Of a stretch of DNA of 64,000 bases, positions 3,930 to 54,614 are shown in pieces (the first letter of the stretch is position 1; each line of letters opens with the position of its first letter). This DNA comes from an uncultured Clostridia bacterium (GTDB lineage: Bacteria; Bacillota_I; Bacilli_A; RF39; UBA660). The position numbers and the translations under genes are program-made. The DNA is taken from contig CANRVH010000002.1 in the NCBI GenBank assembly GCA_947643225.1, positions 9,628 through 73,627 of the forward strand. The letters run 5' to 3'. The notes under the pieces are model-generated. The model ran no database searches. It was given only the letters and a program-made list of their open reading frames with translations, and was not told the DNA's origin.

Positions 3930-4005
3930 GGGGCATTAGCTCAGCTGGGAGAGCGTCACGTTTGCACCGTGAAGGTCAGCGGTTCGATCCCGCTATGCTC
4001 CACCA
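3930..4005 (+). tRNA. tRNA-Ala (anticodon TGC)
   Basis: Cloverleaf folded by hand. Acceptor GGGGCAT/ATGCTCC; D arm GCTC..GAGC; anticodon stem TCACG/CGTGA with loop TTTGCAC; T arm GGTTCGATCC; encoded CCA. Confidence 0.9.
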
Positions 4006-4115
4006 GATTGATAGGAAACTCGAACTTTTCGAGTATTAAGTAAAACGACTTGTCAAAAAGTCGTTTTTATGATATTATGAATATGTCAAGGAAACTTGCA
4101 TAAAATAAAAAAGGG
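4006..4115 (+). repeat. tRNA-adjacent ~110-bp repeat module, copy A (hairpin ACTCGAA..TTCGAGT; terminator-like hairpin AAAACGACTtgtcaaaaAGTCGTTTTT; conserved core ATATGTCAAGGAAACTTGCATAAAATAAAAAAGG)
   Basis: Near-identical to 49627-49738 (after tRNA-Arg) and to the inverted copy at 51873-51988. Starts at the first base after the tRNA CCA. Confidence 0.8.
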
Positions 4116-4205
4116 GAATACTTAACGCTCCAATGTTGAGTACTCGCCACTAATTTGTGTAAGCACTTAATTTACTGAATGTAAATTGAGTGCTTTTCTC
4201 TTATT
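4103..4205 (+). ncRNA. putative small antisense RNA (candidate type I antitoxin) A; convergent with peptide gene 4214-4297
   Basis: TTGCAT -35-like in the module core. Ends in an intrinsic terminator (GCACTTAATTTACtgaatgTAAATTGAGTGC + TTTTCTC, 4165-4203). No ORF. Its 3' end abuts or overlaps the 3' end of the minus-strand peptide gene. Boundaries are approximate. Confidence 0.3.
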
Positions 4206-4213
4206 ATAGATTA

Positions 4214-4297
4214 CTACTTTACTAAAGTAAAAAGTAAGGCTATGAGTAAGATGATAATTAAAATAAGAGATGAGATTAAAAAATCTTTCTTATGCAT
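4214..4297 (-). CDS. 27-aa hydrophobic peptide MHKKDFLISSLILIIILLIALLFTLVK (candidate type I toxin, Fst/SprA1-like)
   Basis: Hand-translated minus-strand ORF with RBS AGGAGG 8 nt upstream of ATG. Paralogous to the peptide at 51710-51793 (MNKKDFLIFALVIIIFLLLLLLFITLI). Not in the ORF track because it is under 60 aa. Confidence 0.5.
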   Translation of the reverse strand: MHKKDFLISSLILIIILLIALLFTLVK

Positions 4298-4420
4298 ATC
4301 ATCAGCCTCCTTTCTTACGAAAGTTGGCAAGCATTCAACTGCTAATATATTCCCTAAGTAAATTATAGCAAGAGATTTGCTGTATAACAATATGATTGAC
4401 TAAATTTTGTCAATTTAATA

Positions 4421-4458
4421 AAAAACACGCTTGTATATTGCCAAATCAATATACATTA
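4421..4458 (+). promoter_or_regulatory. conserved promoter/operator motif copy 1 (AAACACgCTTGtATATTGcCAAATCAATATACATTA), upstream of the DUF1653 pseudogene
   Basis: One of four copies of a ~30-bp motif. It contains the dyad ATATTG-N6/7-CAATAT and lies between -35-like and -10-like hexamers. Confidence 0.45.
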
Positions 4459-4480: not shown

Positions 4481-4732
4481 ATGAATGAAATACAAGTAAA
4501 CAAGATTTATAAGCATTTTAAGGGGAAATTCATTAGAGTCGTATGTGTAGGACTTGATGCAGAAACAAAAAAAGAAATGGTAGCAATCGAAGAACTAGAG
4601 GAATCAGAAGGATATCCAAAAGGTCAAATATGATTTAGAGATAAAAGTGATTTTTTTAAAGAAGTTGATCATGAAAAATATCCAGATATAAAGCAAAAAT
4701 ACAGATTTGAGTTACAGGATGATATAAATTAG
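4481..4732 (+). pseudogene. DUF1653-family gene with in-frame TGA at the conserved Trp position
   Basis: Translates MNEIQVNKIYKHFKGKFIRV...GYPKGQI*FRDKSDFFKEV...KQKYRFELQDDIN. The stop aligns with W in the intact paralog at 8352-8576 (..NSPLWVRPYSLFLDEV..RFELQ). Good RBS. Confidence 0.6.
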
Positions 4733-4860
4733 TTGTTAAACGTCCTCTCTTATGGCACCCTATAGATAGGAAACTTGAACTTTTAATGTTTCGAGTTTTA
4801 ATATGCTTAAATTTATGATAAAATATCTATAGAAATCTAATTGATTTATGTCAATTTAGT

Positions 4861-4896
4861 AAACACACTTGCATATTGTCAAAATCAATATACATT
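4861..4896 (+). promoter_or_regulatory. conserved promoter/operator motif copy 2, upstream of the NUDIX gene
   Basis: AAACACACTTGCATATTGTCAAAATCAATATACATTA. The dyad ATATTG-N7-CAATAT ends ~16 nt before the GGAGG RBS. Confidence 0.45.
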
Positions 4897-4911
4897 ATTT
4901 GGAGGATAGTT

Positions 4912-48331: not shown

Positions 48332-49477
48332 ATGTACTGTAGGAATTGTGGCAATAAATTAGAGGAAGAGGATCTTTTTTGCCCAGAATGCGGGAGAAGA
48401 ATAAAAATCAAAAAAGAACCATTAATAGATTATAAAAACTTAGAGAAAAAATATCAAAAACAACTAATAGGATTAGCAGTATTATTAACAGTTATTCTAG
48501 TACACAATTTTTTAAATAATACTTTTTTTAGTGAAGAAGCAATTATTAAAAAATATGTAAAATCTTATGCTAATAAAGATTATATGAACATAATTGAACT
48601 ATCAGATATGAAGAAAAATAGATTCATAACAAATAAAAACATTCAAAAAAAATATGGCGATAGTACTCATAATAAGGTTGATATTAAAATATTGACTACA
48701 AATAAAAATAAAAAAGAACATACAAGAACAGTTAGTTATAAAACAAATGACTATTCAAATATAATCAATTTAAAAATTAAAAGAAAAGGACATAAATATT
48801 TAATCTTTAATAACTATGTAATAACATCTGCCAATCTAGTAGCAGAAAATGTTAAAATCACTATTCCTAAAGATTCTAAATTAATAGTCGATCATGTAGA
48901 ATTATCTAATCAAGATAAAGTATCAGAAAAAAAATTAACTACTACCTATAAAATAGATAGTATTTTAAAAAAGGATGTTACCATTTCGGTAAAATTGAAA
49001 AACGGTATAACAATAACGGATATAAAATCAGTATTTAATAATGAAGAAATTGATTATACAAAGCTAAATTACACTGAAATTGACAAGAAAAATACTCAAA
49101 AAATAACAAGTGATATAAAGAAAAGTATCCAAGATATAGTAACAAATGCAGTCGAAGAAAAAGAATTTAATACGATAAGAGAAAGTAATATATATACTGA
49201 AAGGTTAAAGAGTGATGTTCTATTTGAAGAAAATTACCATAAGCTAAAAGAAAAATATAAAAATAAATCAGTTACAGAATTTGAAACAACAAAAGTAAAG
49301 ATTAACAATATTAAATTAGATAAGGATAAAAATATAACTTTAAATGTGACTATTCAATATAAATATAAAGATAAAGAATCCAAATTACGTGAAACAACGA
49401 GAAGAATAAATATTACATTAAATCATAATTTATTAATTGATGAGCTTTATTTAAATAATCTATTTTATTTATTTTAA
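48332..49477 (+). CDS. zinc-ribbon membrane protein
   Basis: N-terminal CRNCGN...CPECG, one TM, Lys-rich extracytoplasmic domain. Confidence 0.5.
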   Translation: MYCRNCGNKLEEEDLFCPECGRRIKIKKEPLIDYKNLEKKYQKQLIGLAVLLTVILVHNFLNNTFFSEEAIIKKYVKSYANKDYMNIIELSDMKKNRFITNKNIQKKYGDSTHNKVDIKILTTNKNKKEHTRTVSYKTNDYSNIINLKIKRKGHKYLIFNNYVITSANLVAENVKITIPKDSKLIVDHVELSNQDKVSEKKLTTTYKIDSILKKDVTISVKLKNGITITDIKSVFNNEEIDYTKLNYTEIDKKNTQKITSDIKKSIQDIVTNAVEEKEFNTIRESNIYTERLKSDVLFEENYHKLKEKYKNKSVTEFETTKVKINNIKLDKDKNITLNVTIQYKYKDKESKLRETTRRINITLNHNLLIDELYLNNLFYLF

Positions 49478-49503
49478 AGACTAGTATTTCTATAAAAAAA
49501 TAG

Positions 49504-49531
49504 TTCAAAAACTAAAAAAATGTGCTATACT
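49504..49531 (+). promoter_or_regulatory. promoter for tRNA-Arg (TTCAAA-N16-TGtgcTATACT)
   Basis: Extended -10 TGTGCTATACT ends ~19 nt upstream of the tRNA. Confidence 0.5.
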
Positions 49532-49549
49532 TAAATAGTATATTTTTAT

Positions 49550-49626
49550 ATCCCCGTAGCTCACCTGGATAGAGCAAAAGTTTCCTAAACTTTAGGTAGT
49601 AGGTTCAAGTCCTATCGGGGATACCA
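49550..49626 (+). tRNA. tRNA-Arg (anticodon CCT)
   Basis: Hand-folded. Acceptor ATCCCCG/CGGGGAT; D arm GCTC..GAGC; anticodon stem AAAGT/ACTTT with loop TTCCTAA; T loop TTCAAGT; encoded CCA. Confidence 0.85.
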
Positions 49627-49738
49627 GATTGATAACAAACTCGAACTTTCGAGTAACAAGAGAAAGAACGACTTGTCAAAAAGTCGTTTTTATGTTACTA
49701 TGAATATGTCAAGGAAACTTGCATAAAATAAAAAAGGA
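49627..49738 (+). repeat. tRNA-adjacent ~110-bp repeat module, copy B
   Basis: GATTGATAacAAACTCGAACTTTCGAGTA...AACGACTTGTCAAAAAGTCGTTTTTATG..ATGAATATGTCAAGGAAACTTGCATAAAATAAAAAAGG. Same start position relative to the CCA as copy A. Confidence 0.8.
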
Positions 49739-49827
49739 TACATTTGATTGTGAGAATCAGATGTAATCCCTTGAAGGATAGCATCTGAAATCAACTAATG
49801 TTGAAATCAGATGCTTTGTCTATTTTA
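49725..49827 (+). ncRNA. putative small antisense RNA (candidate type I antitoxin) B
   Basis: No ORF. Terminator GCATCTGAAATCAA..TTGAAATCAGATGC + TTTGTCTATTTT (49781-49827) overlaps the stop of the minus-strand peptide gene. Contains GCATCTGA, complementary to ATCAGATGC in the peptide mRNA 5' UTR. Boundaries approximate. Confidence 0.3.
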
Positions 49828-49897
49828 GGAGTAAAATGATTACTACTAAAAATAGGAGTAATATTATAATAAACTGAAATAGTTCTCTTTTTGTCAT
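49820..49897 (-). CDS. 25-aa hydrophobic peptide MTKRELFQFIIILLLFLVVIILLLK (candidate type I toxin)
   Basis: Internal Met of track ORF 49820-50041, with RBS AAAGGTGGTGA. Charged N-terminus plus a single TM, like peptides A and C. Confidence 0.45.
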   Translation of the reverse strand: MTKRELFQFIIILLLFLVVIILLLK

Positions 49898-50034
49898 AAA
49901 TATCACCACCTTTCTTTTATCTTTGATAAATAGAAAGGGAAAGCATCTGATATTTTCAAACGTATCCATTAACATTATAGCAAACATTTGTTCTTCATAC
50001 AATAAATTTAATACTAAATGTTGTGATAATTTAG

Positions 50035-50060
50035 AAAACACACTTGCATATTGTCATAAT
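50035..50060 (+). promoter_or_regulatory. conserved promoter/operator motif copy 3 (AAAACACACTTGCATATTGTCATAAT), upstream of the MTase pseudogene
   Basis: Left half of the motif is conserved and the -10-like TGtCATAAT sits at the expected position. The right dyad arm is lost. Confidence 0.4.
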
Positions 50061-50102
50061 AAGCAAGATGCATTTGGGTATTAGTTAGAAGGGGAAATTT
50101 AT

Positions 50103-50669
50103 ATGACTTTTAAAGAAAAGGCTAAAAATTATGATAATGAATCAAGAGAAAAACGATCTCAAATCATTGCAGAAAAGATATTGAACATTGTTGGAGATAA
50201 ACAAAACTCTATGATGATGGAATATGGCTGTGCAACTGGATTAATATCGTTTCATTTATATGATAGATTTAAAAAATTAACTTTGATTGATTCTGAAGAG
50301 TAAATAATAAATATAGTAAGAAAAAAAGTTATTAATTATAATATATCTAATGTTATACCTATTAGAAAAGATTTAACAAAAGAAAAATATAATGTAGAAA
50401 AATTTGATGTTATTTTTACTTCATTGACACTTTATCACATAGTAGATGTAAAAAATATGATAAAGACATTTTATAGTATGTTAAATAAAGATGGTATATT
50501 AATTATAGATTTAGATAAAGAAGATGGTAGTTTTCATATGGATACAAAAGATTTTAGTGGTCATAATGGATTTGAACATAAATATATGGAAAATATATTA
50601 AAATCTGTTGGATTGTTTAATATTAAATCTGAAACATTTTTCAATAGCGAAAAGAAGATAAAAAAATAA
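50103..50669 (+). pseudogene. class I SAM-dependent methyltransferase interrupted by one in-frame TAA (50301-50303)
   Basis: Two track ORFs (50103-50303, 50424-50669) share one frame. Read through: motif I EYGCATG, post-I LIDSEE*, motif II FDVIFTS, motif III LNKDGILII. Confidence 0.6.
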
Positions 50670-50732
50670 AGTTATAATACCTCCTCTTTTAGGGTACCTT
50701 AAAGGATGACGTTCAACAACTTCCTTGTAATA

Positions 50733-51587: not shown

Positions 51588-51709
51588 TCTATATTGAAAA
51601 AATTTAATATAAAACCGCCGATTTAAGAACAAATGTTTACTATAATAAATTTAGGAACGCTTAATAAGTTGGGTGGAGCCAAACTTCATAAAAGAAGGGA
51701 GGCGATATA

Positions 51710-51793
51710 ATGAACAAGAAAGATTTCTTAATCTTTGCTCTAGTAATTATTATCTTCCTTTTACTATTATTGTTATTTATAACTTTAATATAA
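51710..51793 (+). CDS. 27-aa hydrophobic peptide MNKKDFLIFALVIIIFLLLLLLFITLI (candidate type I toxin, paralog of peptide A)
   Basis: RBS AAGGGAGG. TATAAT -10 at 51643-51648. The 3' end abuts the hairpin TCCACCTAA..TTAGGTGGA. Confidence 0.5.
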   Translation: MNKKDFLIFALVIIIFLLLLLLFITLI

Positions 51794-51885
51794 AAGAAAT
51801 CCACCTAACTCTAGCATAGATTTAGGTGGAACCAAATACATGGTGACACTCAACACTGCAATATTGAATGTTCCTTTTATTTTAT
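51787..51885 (-). ncRNA. putative small antisense RNA (candidate type I antitoxin) C
   Basis: Minus-strand terminator TCCACCTAAatctatgctagagTTAGGTGGA + TTTCTTTTAT. The segment TTTGGTTCCACCTAAA can pair with 15 contiguous nt (2 G-U) of the peptide mRNA 5' UTR (TTGGGTGGAGCCAAA). Its 5' part (CAGTGTTGAGTGTC) is homologous to sRNA A (CAATGTTGAGTACTC). Confidence 0.35.
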
Positions 51886-51988
51886 GCAAGTTTCCTTGAC
51901 ATATTGACCATAACATAAAAACGCACCTTTATCAAGTACGTTTTTTAATTACTACTCGAACTCTCACTATTTTATGTATTCGAGTTTT
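51873..51988 (-). repeat. repeat module, copy C (inverted orientation, no adjacent tRNA)
   Basis: Reverse complement carries ACTCGAA..TTCGAGT, then AAAAAACGTAC..GTGCGTTTTTATG and the identical core ATATGTCAAGGAAACTTGCATAAAATAAAAGG. Confidence 0.75.
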
Positions 51989-52846: not shown

Positions 52847-52994
52847 CATGCACTTTTTATTAAATTGACTAATAATTCTAATTTTTATTGAAAGCAAATA
52901 ACTTCAAAAAAAGTAGTTTTTATGCTATGATAACGATATCGAAATATCTTTTATCAAAAAGAAATATTTAAATGGTCTTAATTGAAATAACAAA

Positions 52995-54614
52995 GTGGTG
53001 ATGCAAGGAATGAATACAAATATTAATTTTATTTTTAGGAGTCTCAATAAAAAGAAGATAATTGTTTGTTTATTGATAGAGGCATTTTTAGACTTTATTT
53101 ATTTTTTAGTTCCCTTTGCTTTCACATTATTTTTAACTTTACCTTTTACCATTGAAAAGGCAGTCATTGTAATAGCAATATTTATGATCTCTAAAACATT
53201 TCGTGTTGCAGGAAACTATTTATTAAGAAAATATAGGGATAATTATTTATATGAACATTCAAAGATACAATATCAAGAATATTATAAAAAATTAAGTAAA
53301 TTACCTGTAGAAACGATATCAAAGTATCAAACTGGATATTTTGAAAATATAATCGAGAAAATTAGTGGATTAGTAAGAAACATATTACAGGCAGAGTATA
53401 TAAGTATAGTAATAACTTTTATTTTCTTGTTTTATACATTATATAATCAGTCAATACTACTATTTATCAGTTCATTTATTACAAGTAGTATTTGTATAGT
53501 TTTAAGCATTAGAATATTACAAAAAGCAAATAAACAAGTGGAAAAATTATATGACCAAGAGTATCAATATTCATCAAATTATAATGATTATATTAATAAT
53601 ATTCGTACAGTTAAACTATTAAATAACAATAATTACTTTGCTAATAAAATTGGTAAGGAAGGTAAAAAATGTTATCATGAAGAACAGAAATATGTTAAAT
53701 ATTATTCTTTAGAAGAAGTTTTACGCAATATATTAATCGTTATTCCATTTTTTCTTGGTTTAATAAAAGCTACTATTGACCTAGAAAAGGGGATTGATAC
53801 ACTAGGAATTATTACTTTTTATATTTCGCTACATATCGAAATGGGATTTATATTTGAAGAGTTATCTGGAACAATAATCAATTGGTACGAGTTGAAAGCA
53901 ATAAAAAACAAATTAAATTGTATATTTAAAGATTTAGATTATAGAAAAGAGCTGAAAACCTTTCATAAAATTGAGTTATCTAATATTATAATAGAGTATC
54001 CCAAATCAACGTTAAAAATAGGAGTAGATCACTTAATCATAAATGATAATGATAAAATATCGATTACAGGTCAATCAGGCCAAGGGAAAACTTCTATAAT
54101 TAATTTAATTTTAGGCAACATTAATTCGTATAAAGGAAAGATTTTAATTGATGGTAAAAATTTAAAGTATGTAAAGTTAGATATTGGTGTTGTAAGTCAA
54201 GAAATAGAATTATTTAATATGTCTATCAAAGATAATTTATGTCTAGGAAGAAGAATACCAGATGAAGAAATTAAAAAATATTTGAAGGAACTTGAATTAG
54301 ATGAAATACTAATGTTTGAAGACGGAATTAATACAGTTATTGGTGAAAAAGGATTAAAATTATCTACTGGTCAAAAAAGAAGAATAAATATATTAAGAAG
54401 TTATTTAATGAAAAAAGATATCTATATTTTAGATGAACCAACCTCTAATTTAGATAGTCACACAGAAGAAATAGTAATTAACTTTATCCTAAAATATTTT
54501 AAAGATAAAACCTTAATTATTGCTACACATAATAAGAAAATAAATACAATATGTAATCAATTTTATACCTTTAAAAATCACAAATTAATAAAAATCGATC
54601 ACTTTGCTTCTTAG
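52995..54614 (+). CDS. ABC exporter, fused permease-ATPase (type I exporter; no C39 peptidase domain)
   Basis: N-terminal 6-TM domain. Walker A GQSGQGKTS, signature LSTGQKRR, Walker B ILDEPTSNLD. Confidence 0.8.
   Translation: MVMQGMNTNINFIFRSLNKKKIIVCLLIEAFLDFIYFLVPFAFTLFLTLPFTIEKAVIVIAIFMISKTFRVAGNYLLRKYRDNYLYEHSKIQYQEYYKKLSKLPVETISKYQTGYFENIIEKISGLVRNILQAEYISIVITFIFLFYTLYNQSILLFISSFITSSICIVLSIRILQKANKQVEKLYDQEYQYSSNYNDYINNIRTVKLLNNNNYFANKIGKEGKKCYHEEQKYVKYYSLEEVLRNILIVIPFFLGLIKATIDLEKGIDTLGIITFYISLHIEMGFIFEELSGTIINWYELKAIKNKLNCIFKDLDYRKELKTFHKIELSNIIIEYPKSTLKIGVDHLIINDNDKISITGQSGQGKTSIINLILGNINSYKGKILIDGKNLKYVKLDIGVVSQEIELFNMSIKDNLCLGRRIPDEEIKKYLKELELDEILMFEDGINTVIGEKGLKLSTGQKRRINILRSYLMKKDIYILDEPTSNLDSHTEEIVINFILKYFKDKTLIIATHNKKINTICNQFYTFKNHKLIKIDHFAS

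Follow-up and report, generated by a model that had tools for sequence, protein, structure and literature searches.

The locus analysed here, locus B, is a small-RNA/peptide cassette lying downstream of a tRNA-Arg gene in a 64,000-nt stretch of contig CANRVH010000002.1 from an uncultured Clostridia bacterium. The whole stretch is referred to as the window, and all coordinates are given in its numbering. The locus was examined by reading positions 49200-50400 together with the listing of open reading frames (ORFs). It is a compact, self-contained unit of approximately 340 bp holding two convergent genes. On the - strand, an ORF with its ATG at 49897 and a TAG stop at 49822-49820 encodes the peptide MTKRELFQFIIILLLFLVVIILLLK (25 aa), in which the charged head MTKRE is followed by a hydrophobic helix of 19 residues and a final Lys; a Shine-Dalgarno (SD) sequence lies 6 nt ahead of the ATG. 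On the + strand, a structured, ORF-less small RNA (sRNA) gene of about 124 nt extends from approximately 49706 to 49829. The arms of its second hairpin (49780-49795 and 49800-49815, 14 of 16 positions paired) are followed by the T-run TTTGTCTATTTTAGG, which spans the stop codon of the peptide gene. The original prediction had described just such an arrangement, an ORF-less + strand segment whose terminator T-run overlaps the stop of a - strand 25-aa gene with its own ribosome binding site, and this can be read directly in the sequence. The features of the locus are as follows.

49550-49626, + strand: tRNA-Arg(CCT), detected by ARAGORN (Rfam tRNA model, 61.2 bits); the cassette begins about 80 nt past its 3' end.
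49639-49654, + strand: trailer hairpin ACTCGAA-CTTT-CGAGT, also found after tRNA-Ala (4018-4036), before locus C and at 4771-4800.
49667-49693, + strand: terminator-like hairpin AACGACTT-GTCAAA-AAGTCGTT followed by TTTTT, between tRNA-Arg and the sRNA; contains the sRNA -35 box.
49673-49701, + strand: sRNA promoter, TTGTCA (49673-49678), 17 nt, TG-extended TACTAT.
49706-49724, + strand: 5' stem-loop of the sRNA, AUG(U)CAAG-GAAA-CUUGCAU, with a GNRA-type loop; common to all peptide subfamilies.
49725-49735, + strand: A-rich linker AAAATAAAAAA; its - strand reading is the U-tract of the presumed terminator of the toxin mRNA.
49736-49769, + strand: sRNA hairpin 1 (HP1), GGATACATTTGATT-GTGAG-AATCAGATGTAATCC; present in the minimum free energy (MFE) fold and in RNAalifold columns 39-46 with 56-63, with compensatory changes.
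49776-49829, + strand: sRNA hairpin 2 (HP2), intrinsic terminator with its T-run over the peptide stop; RNAalifold columns 103-110 with 133-140.
49820-49897, - strand: ORF of the 25-aa hydrophobic peptide, a putative toxin; 16 orthologous loci.
49903-49913, - strand: SD sequence AAAGGTGGTGA (read from 49913 to 49903), conserved in all B-type loci.
49932-49939, - strand: anti-SD CCCTTTCT, pairing with AGAAAGG of the SD region.
49938-49967, - strand: 5' hairpin of the peptide mRNA, GGATACGTTTGA...TCAGATGCTTTCC, which holds a motif (49951-49943) complementary to the sRNA.
49974-50002, - strand: promoter of the peptide mRNA, TTGTAT (50002-49997), 17 nt, TG-extended TATAAT (49979-49974), read directly; transcription would start near 49967.
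49722-49771, - strand: region where the peptide mRNA presumably ends, with HP1 in reverse complement and then UUUUUUAUUUU.

Because the hairpin and T-run at 49667-49693 stand between the tRNA and the sRNA promoter, they would insulate the sRNA from the tRNA, and expression of the sRNA by read-through from the tRNA gene is unlikely.

A 71-nt module at 49667-49737 recurs with 97% identity at 4044-4114, on the 3' side of tRNA-Ala, and a pattern search found a third copy at 51902-51879. The window thus contains three paralogous cassettes, A, B and C, which can be aligned from the upstream hairpin to the peptide promoter. The coordinates of the other two are:

4044-4375: cassette A, with the sRNA on the + strand and the peptide MHKKDFLISSLILIIILLIALLFTLVK on the - strand (4297-4214), downstream of tRNA-Ala.
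51640-51960: cassette C, inverted, with the sRNA on the - strand (module 51902-51879) and the peptide MNKKDFLIFALVIIIFLLLLLLFITLI on the + strand (51710-51793); no adjoining tRNA.

Relatives in other genomes were sought by one exact 21-nt scan of the GTDB species representatives with the sRNA 5' module GTCAAGGAAACTTGCATAAAA. The module is present in at least 119 contigs from approximately 105 assemblies. Among the matches listed, all assemblies are metagenome-assembled genomes (MAGs) of uncultured gut "Bacilli/Tenericutes/Mollicutes/Erysipelotrichaceae"; they include Candidatus Ventrenecus and Candidatus Onthousia, and come from hosts such as rabbit, mouse, chicken, goat and human. Part of the identity between modules is imposed by the exact search pattern, and neighbouring copies recovered by a relaxed search differ from it by 1-2 nt. 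The module was absent from the phage, plasmid and viral collections IMG/VR, PLSDB and INPHARED.

The whole arrangement of locus B recurs in at least 134 module copies of other genomes and is therefore beyond chance. Among the matches listed, 90 of the 113 full-length copies face a convergent, SD-led ORF for a hydrophobic peptide of 24-30 aa, and in these 90 loci the ATG is found at a fixed distance from the module, 177-215 nt away. The facing peptides form six related subfamilies, the B type (MTKRE...) being represented by 16 of the loci listed. About 15% of the full-length copies listed retain an intact sRNA while the peptide gene is deleted, truncated, mutated or start-less; such orphan sRNA copies were observed, for instance, at L043, L061, L086, L107 and L072:5777-5911 (L numbers designate loci of other genomes). 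Tandem arrays with a spacing of approximately 345-475 nt occur in L045, L066, L072 and L109. Between MAGs the cassettes are 82-90% identical, as against 73-78% for flanking housekeeping genes of the same MAGs, and synteny is not kept; conservation ends just past the -35 box of the peptide promoter.

The cassettes prefer the 3' flank of tRNA genes. In 45 of 126 module copies among the matches listed, a tRNA on the same strand ends 51-186 nt upstream (mostly 76-92 nt), where one or two such copies would be expected by chance; the tRNAs concerned span eight isoacceptors (Leu, Arg, Met, Thr, Ala, Val, Gln and Lys). A trailer hairpin of the CTCGAA..TTCGAG type is found in 22 of 129 unique upstream regions.

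Evidence that the peptide frame is coding came from its pattern of variation. The ratio of nonsynonymous to synonymous polymorphism (pN/pS) was 0.31 when pooled within subfamilies and 0.18 for the B subfamily, compared to 0.59 and 1.86 in the two shifted frames (pooled over all subfamilies), and the second codon position varies least. Judged from these substitutions, purifying selection maintains a hydrophobic helix in this frame. No known family accounts for the peptides: a search of nine of them against Pfam and NCBIfam gave no hit even at E <= 10, the Pfam Fst model and other toxin models included, and none of the eight peptides looked up exactly was present in a collection of 15 billion proteins. 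The flanking 381-aa protein, also looked up exactly, was not on record either. Scanned permissively against Rfam, loci A, B and C gave nothing but tRNA above threshold, and no known antitoxin RNA.

For the sRNA, 89 distinct regions were aligned and analysed with RNAalifold. The consensus consists of the 5' stem-loop, HP1 and HP2, and 12 of its 21 base pairs show double compensatory changes. Paired columns contain approximately 196 G-U or U-G cells, compared to about 8 A-C or C-A cells; the fold is therefore selected on the module strand and not on the peptide strand. Likewise, the HP1-HP2 region is more stable on the module strand in 79 of 90 loci, and the sRNA of locus B folds with an MFE of -43.4 kcal/mol (z = -7.4). 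The variable two-thirds of the molecule, HP1 and HP2, change in step with the peptide subfamily and with the 5' untranslated region (UTR) of the putative toxin mRNA. The sRNA promoter is conserved as well: the consensus over all copies listed is CTTGnnAAAAnnnnnTTTTTATGnTATnATGAATnTGT, and the conserved pattern reads CTTGnnAAAA-N5-TTTTTATGnTATnAT. In 65 of 121 unique copies the -35 box is embedded in a hairpin (<= -5 kcal/mol, with a T-rich tail) whose stem sequences vary.

Two possible coding sequences across the module were considered and set aside. A leaderless mini-ORF could open the module (ATG TCA AGG AAA CTT GCA TAA, encoding MSRKLA; 49706-49726, 4083-4103 and 51902-51882), and its first base is A, T or G in most copies, giving ATG, TTG or GTG; as the stop is lost in 3 of approximately 10 variant copies and the start is ACG or TCG in two aligned copies, it is unlikely to be coding. 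The ORFs that run antisense to the module (...FLFYASFLDIF...) do not keep the same reading frame between loci.

The peptide mRNA is predicted to be silenced by its own structure. Its -10 box is TATAAT in 66 of 90 loci, and in every subfamily an anti-SD, different in sequence in each, lies a few nucleotides upstream of the SD. The predicted probability that the SD core is unpaired is 0.25 in locus B and 0.26 on average over the 90 loci, as opposed to 0.61 in 31 ordinary genes of the window (p = 1e-8 for toxin loci versus these controls). On the - strand, the reverse complement of HP1 forms a hairpin of -12.4 kcal/mol which, followed by the U-tract, is terminator-like. Most likely, the peptide mRNA measures approximately 245 nt and continues across both sRNA hairpins in antisense, its terminator being formed by this hairpin together with the complement of the A-rich linker. 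With this 3' end, the sRNA and the mRNA would probably overlap perfectly over some 100 nt, with both hairpins covered, well beyond the terminator T-run.

The first 30 nt or so of the peptide mRNA are approximately 83% identical, in the same sense, to HP1 of the sRNA; the 5' end of the mRNA is therefore complementary to its own 3' end. When the 246-nt mRNA was modelled, its two ends paired (-79.3 kcal/mol, z = -10.9). The same closure was found in the MFE structure of 87 of 90 loci, in all six subfamilies, with 20-29 of the first 32 nt paired to the 3' end. Folding was done sequence by sequence, a global alignment of the 5' UTRs across subfamilies having been too poor for RNAalifold to give a consensus. 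Asymmetry of transitions on this pairing gave 179 compatible versus 66 incompatible changes overall and 11 versus 25 in the B subfamily, a comparison that is confounded by the G-U pairs within each hairpin.

Altogether, these data establish locus B as a genuine, conserved, multicopy sRNA/peptide cassette. We think it likely that it is, beyond this, a copy of a new family of type I toxin-antitoxin (TA)-like systems having the 3'-overlap layout of Gram-positive bacteria, the toxicity of the peptide being putative. Features typical of type I TA systems are an ORF for a small (<60 aa) hydrophobic peptide, served by an SD and a promoter (TTGTAT-17-TATAAT) of its own, a non-coding antisense RNA gene with extended complementarity (deduced from the proposed overlap) and predicted sequestration of the SD in the toxin mRNA; further hallmarks shared with these systems are multiple copies, tandem arrays, peptide-less copies, cassettes that are more alike between MAGs than the housekeeping genes beside them and lack synteny, and the occurrence of a different cassette type at one and the same flank (L111). 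The original prediction, that locus B is a type I TA locus like locus A but with a different peptide and sRNA, is thus sustained by the three paralogues in the window and more than 100 relatives in other MAGs, by purifying selection on the peptide, by hairpin covariation with its G-U signature, and by conserved promoters and terminators, tandem arrays and toxin-less remnants. As to mechanism, the peptide mRNA alone would be translationally silent, with the local anti-SD on the SD and the 5' end on the 3' end. The sRNA would pair with the 3' UTR of the mRNA, probably starting from loop-loop contacts, and the long duplex would set off decay, on the model of RatA/txpA and SR4/bsrG. Were the sRNA lost, the peptide would be made and could damage the membrane.

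Several points weigh against this interpretation. Toxicity, transcript ends and RNA-RNA interaction are all predicted. Since neither peptides nor RNA match any entry in Pfam, NCBIfam or Rfam, the TA assignment follows from architecture only. All the genomes concerned are MAGs, in which binning may affect copy number and context. Nothing in the toxin mRNA is complementary to the constant 5' module of the sRNA, for which the TA model offers no explanation. Finally, freeing, blocking or trimming the 3' UTR makes no difference in the models: the SD remains sequestered throughout, and no SD switch emerges.

The original prediction envisaged regulation of a different sort: like SprA1AS, the sRNA would act in trans at the 5' UTR, through the sequence GCATCTGA, said to occur twice in the sRNA, and a complementary ATCAGATGC in the peptide mRNA. 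The 5' UTR does hold ATCAGATGC (- strand, 49951-49943). However, of the two + strand copies of GCATCTGA, one (49781) is within the sRNA and the other (49943) belongs to the stretch encoding the peptide 5' UTR itself; the sRNA additionally carries the inverse sequence TCAGATGC at 49807 and a near-copy, TCAGATGT, at 49757. Nor would pairing take place around the ribosome binding site: the site that could pair is inside the 5' hairpin, 45-54 nt ahead of the ATG, and leaves out the SD.

In its full form, this explanation has the sRNA acting mainly in trans, as SprA1AS and RNAII do, with the 5' arm of the terminator, GGAUAGCAUCUGAAAU, pairing with AUAUCAGAUGCUUUCC to block translation and the 3' overlap being incidental. 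We consider this unlikely, in spite of complementarity that is clearly specific to each subfamily. Positions 49776-49791 and 49938-49953 form a direct repeat of 16 nt with 14 identities. In every subfamily, the best contiguous helix between sRNA and 5' UTR (7-15 bp) joins the linker and 5' arm of HP2 to the 3' arm of the 5' hairpin, although the sequences differ, and in locus C this helix (15 bp) reaches into the sRNA-specific linker, past the extent of the cis partner. Compact duplexes averaged -14.7 kcal/mol for cognate pairs versus -9.1 for cross-family pairs, B-type UTRs giving -15.1 versus -2.9 to -5.4. (An all-versus-all comparison of whole sequences with RNAduplex, -31.2 cognate versus -27.1, was inflated by long interior loops and was replaced by compact segments and accessibility-corrected helices.) Moreover, Fst/RNAII and SprA1/SprA1as interact outside their overlap (PMC8594479). 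Against these points, both partners are buried in stable hairpins, and once accessibility is taken into account the best net energy reached by any duplex of locus B is +0.6 kcal/mol; a lack of favourable duplexes was what the original prediction had named as refuting it, and this result counts against the trans model. The motif helix is not among the best four duplexes of locus B, and net means for the whole family range from +7 to +15 kcal/mol. The 9-bp helix is not convincing alone, since 99 of 2000 shuffles (5%) reach the same helix, and modelled blocking of the site leaves SD accessibility unchanged. Lastly, for this 5' UTR segment, pairing in cis with the 3' end of the mRNA (-32 to -37 kcal/mol by RNAduplex) is much stronger than pairing in trans with the sRNA (-17 to -24). 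The SprA1AS-like model is thus supported only in part: the complementarity is family-specific, but it does not touch SD or AUG. The complementary motif is real and selected, and a 5'-3' fold-back, or a system of three repeated hairpins, explains it more economically than a block of the ribosome binding site. A kinetic, co-transcriptional contact in trans between the sRNA and the 5' UTR may still occur.

A broader possibility, which we put forward as tentative and rather doubtful, is that the cassettes form a modular, exchangeable system with a constant left end, a swappable core and an optional right end, ACACTTGCATATTG. The left end would comprise the tRNA-trailer hairpin, the terminator with its embedded promoter, the invariant 5' stem-loop serving as a handle, and the A-rich tail; the core would be made up of the peptide, the 5' hairpin and both hairpins of the sRNA. 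Through the handle, every antitoxin RNA in the cell would recruit the same host factor (an RNase or a chaperone), and the conserved ends would allow cores to be swapped by recombination or cassettes to be targeted to tRNA 3' flanks. HP1, HP2 and the mRNA 5' hairpin would be three copies of a single family-specific hairpin, making up a Gram-positive counterpart of the hok/aapA fold-back lock. One locus of another genome bears on the exchange of cores. The segment L111:4542-5640 has the same methyltransferase flank as window 49550-50670, with 90% identity from window position 49997 on, and there the flank borders a cassette of the F4 type (MKTKTF..., 30 aa) and a tRNA-Met instead of cassette B. 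The presence of another cassette and another tRNA at the same flank suggests that cassette cores are exchanged between conserved ends.

It is also conceivable, but improbable in our view, that this small membrane protein lacks toxicity and acts, for instance, on a transporter or sensor as a modulator; a cis-antisense RNA would then tune its level, with no addiction or defence relationship of the TA kind. The toxicity of the peptide is only putative, purifying selection would act on any functional small protein, and the cassettes are chromosomal and without match in the phage, plasmid and viral collections. Yet multicopy, tandem, rapidly reshuffled cassettes with six peptide variants are unlike a housekeeping modulator, and peptide-less remnants recur in which the RNA is retained. 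The tight, multilayered silencing predicted here (SD sequestration, 5'-3' closure and antisense along the full length of the 3' UTR) and a sequence that is almost nothing but one membrane helix point the same way.

Less probable still is that the RNA is the main actor, a trans-acting sRNA family using its constant 5' module as a seed or protein-binding handle for other targets, with the peptide as a passenger: the 5' stem-loop and A-rich linker common to all subfamilies have no partner in the peptide mRNA, sRNA copies survive without a peptide gene and many lie at a fixed distance of about 80 nt behind tRNA genes, but HP1 and HP2 track the peptide subfamily and the toxin 5' UTR, the module was the search key, so that its invariance is partly by construction, and no candidate target was found. 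Terminal inverted repeats like those of miniature inverted-repeat transposable elements were rejected, as the repeat (HP1 plus the mRNA 5' hairpin) is internal to the conserved unit and is itself flanked by the two promoters.

Taking locus B as TA-like, its layout can be compared with that of known systems. In the Gram-positive type I families the antisense RNA is on the 3' side of the toxin gene, and leaves the ORF free in the case of Fst/RNAII and SprA1/SprA1as; these pairs have additional complementarity, from short repeats, at the toxin 5' region beyond the overlap (T1TAdb paper, PMC8594479). The cassettes resemble Fst/RNAII (par, Enterococcus faecalis pAD1) and SprA1/SprA1AS (Staphylococcus aureus) in being convergent, in having the antisense RNA on the 3' side where it overlaps the 3' UTR and not the ORF, in encoding a short single-helix peptide, and in the extra complementarity to the toxin 5' region. 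They differ in that this complementarity misses SD and AUG and is predicted to be inaccessible, in an overlap that is probably about 100 nt and thus exceeds a shared terminator, and in a peptide that is charged at its N terminus, its C-terminal charge being limited to one or two Lys. There is no sequence relationship, the peptide falling outside Fst/PepA1 and the RNA outside any known family.

The Bacillus subtilis systems TxpA/RatA, BsrG/SR4, BsrE/SR5 and YonT/SR6 resemble the cassettes in their convergent genes, chromosomal location, multiple copies and partly sequestered toxin SD, and their long 3' overlap (tens of nucleotides to about 120) is predicted for the cassettes too. Their antitoxins act mainly by forming a duplex that is degraded in an RNase III-dependent manner. 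In their families the antisense RNA overlaps the ORF (PMC8594479). The sRNA of the cassettes ends, in contrast, at the stop codon, with the exception of the MRKSEK subfamily. The putative toxins of the cassettes are half the size and not homologous, and whereas the B. subtilis systems are carried by prophage-like elements, the cassettes have no phage or plasmid match.

Full-length hok and aapA mRNAs are inert, closed by a long-distance 5'-3' interaction (PMC6733600), and the putative toxin mRNA is likewise predicted to be closed end to end. In hok/Sok and aapA/IsoA, however, a 3' element masks the SD and 3' trimming activates the mRNA, whereas the cassettes have a local, upstream anti-SD and trimming is without effect in the models. 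Furthermore, the antisense RNA of the cassettes is complementary to the 3' end of the mRNA rather than to its 5' region, there is no leader ORF, and the host lineages are unrelated.

Type I toxins of Clostridioides difficile are approximately 34-53 aa long, have tails rich in Lys and show a link to CRISPR arrays and prophages. The C. difficile modules consist of small hydrophobic peptides and convergent antisense RNAs, present in several copies in a low-GC Firmicute of the gut (PMC5961336, PMC6563280). The cassettes have these features in common with them; no sequence similarity was detected via Pfam, NCBIfam or Rfam. Full-text literature searches returned no account of type I TA systems in the lineages carrying the cassettes. 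The kind of system is therefore known, but the family, its constant sRNA 5' module and its habit of flanking tRNA genes are not described in the resources searched.

Peptides of 24-30 aa fall below the limits of gene callers and the RNA is outside Rfam; standard annotation therefore misses a gene family that is abundant in a widespread, uncultured lineage of the gut. If our interpretation is correct, type I TA systems extend to uncultured gut Bacilli, including MAGs labelled Tenericutes or Mollicutes. Six toxin variants on one RNA scaffold would amount to a natural experiment on the evolution of antisense specificity and of fold-back locks. The cassettes could also serve as markers of strain variation, and could supply synthetic biology with small, putatively membrane-active peptides together with matched RNA off-switches.

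Some further observations concern the ends of the cassettes. The flanking tRNAs have a common trailer, ACCA-GATTGATAnnAAACTCGAAC..TTCGAGTA (window 49550-49708 and 3930-4085; loci L001-L119), and sequences that are not tRNAs but end in ..GCACCA precede the cassettes in L003, L006, L007, L021, L023, L038 and L043. On the other side, the motif AACACACTTGCATATTGTCA occurs four times in the window (4424-4443, 4862-4881 and 50037-50056 on the + strand, 51586-51567 on the - strand) with none expected by chance. Each copy is just past the peptide promoter of a cassette and upstream of the neighbouring gene, and in 22 of 90 loci of other genomes, among the matches listed, the motif is found 117-142 nt beyond the toxin ATG. 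Part of it, ACTTGCATA, also occurs in the sRNA 5' module. The motif may act as an outward-facing promoter or operator, or mark the right end of the cassette. Positions 4728-4900 hold a GGCACC-CTATAGATAGG trailer with a ACTTGAAC..TTTCGAGT hairpin and, some 60 nt on, the right-end motif, with neither sRNA nor peptide between them; this segment looks like an emptied cassette. A weak (65%) match to the 71-nt module region, without the sRNA 5' stem-loop, is present at 52897-52967, upstream of a gene at 52995.

Two genes next to the cassettes carry in-frame stops. Next to locus B, a class I methyltransferase-like gene (50103-50669) contains an in-frame TAA at 50301-50303, the frame remaining open to 50669, and is probably a pseudogene. 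Near cassette A, a small ORF at 4481-4733 (YKHFKGK...), putatively DUF1653-like, contains a TGA at 4631-4633 where Trp fits (..PKGQI-W-FRDKS..), and its frame goes on to 4733. TGA serves as the stop of 4 of the 51 long ORFs in the window, and a general change of the genetic code is unlikely, since table 11 gives uninterrupted ORFs as long as 765 aa. The ORF at 4481-4733 may be a pseudogene or reflect a local recoding event.

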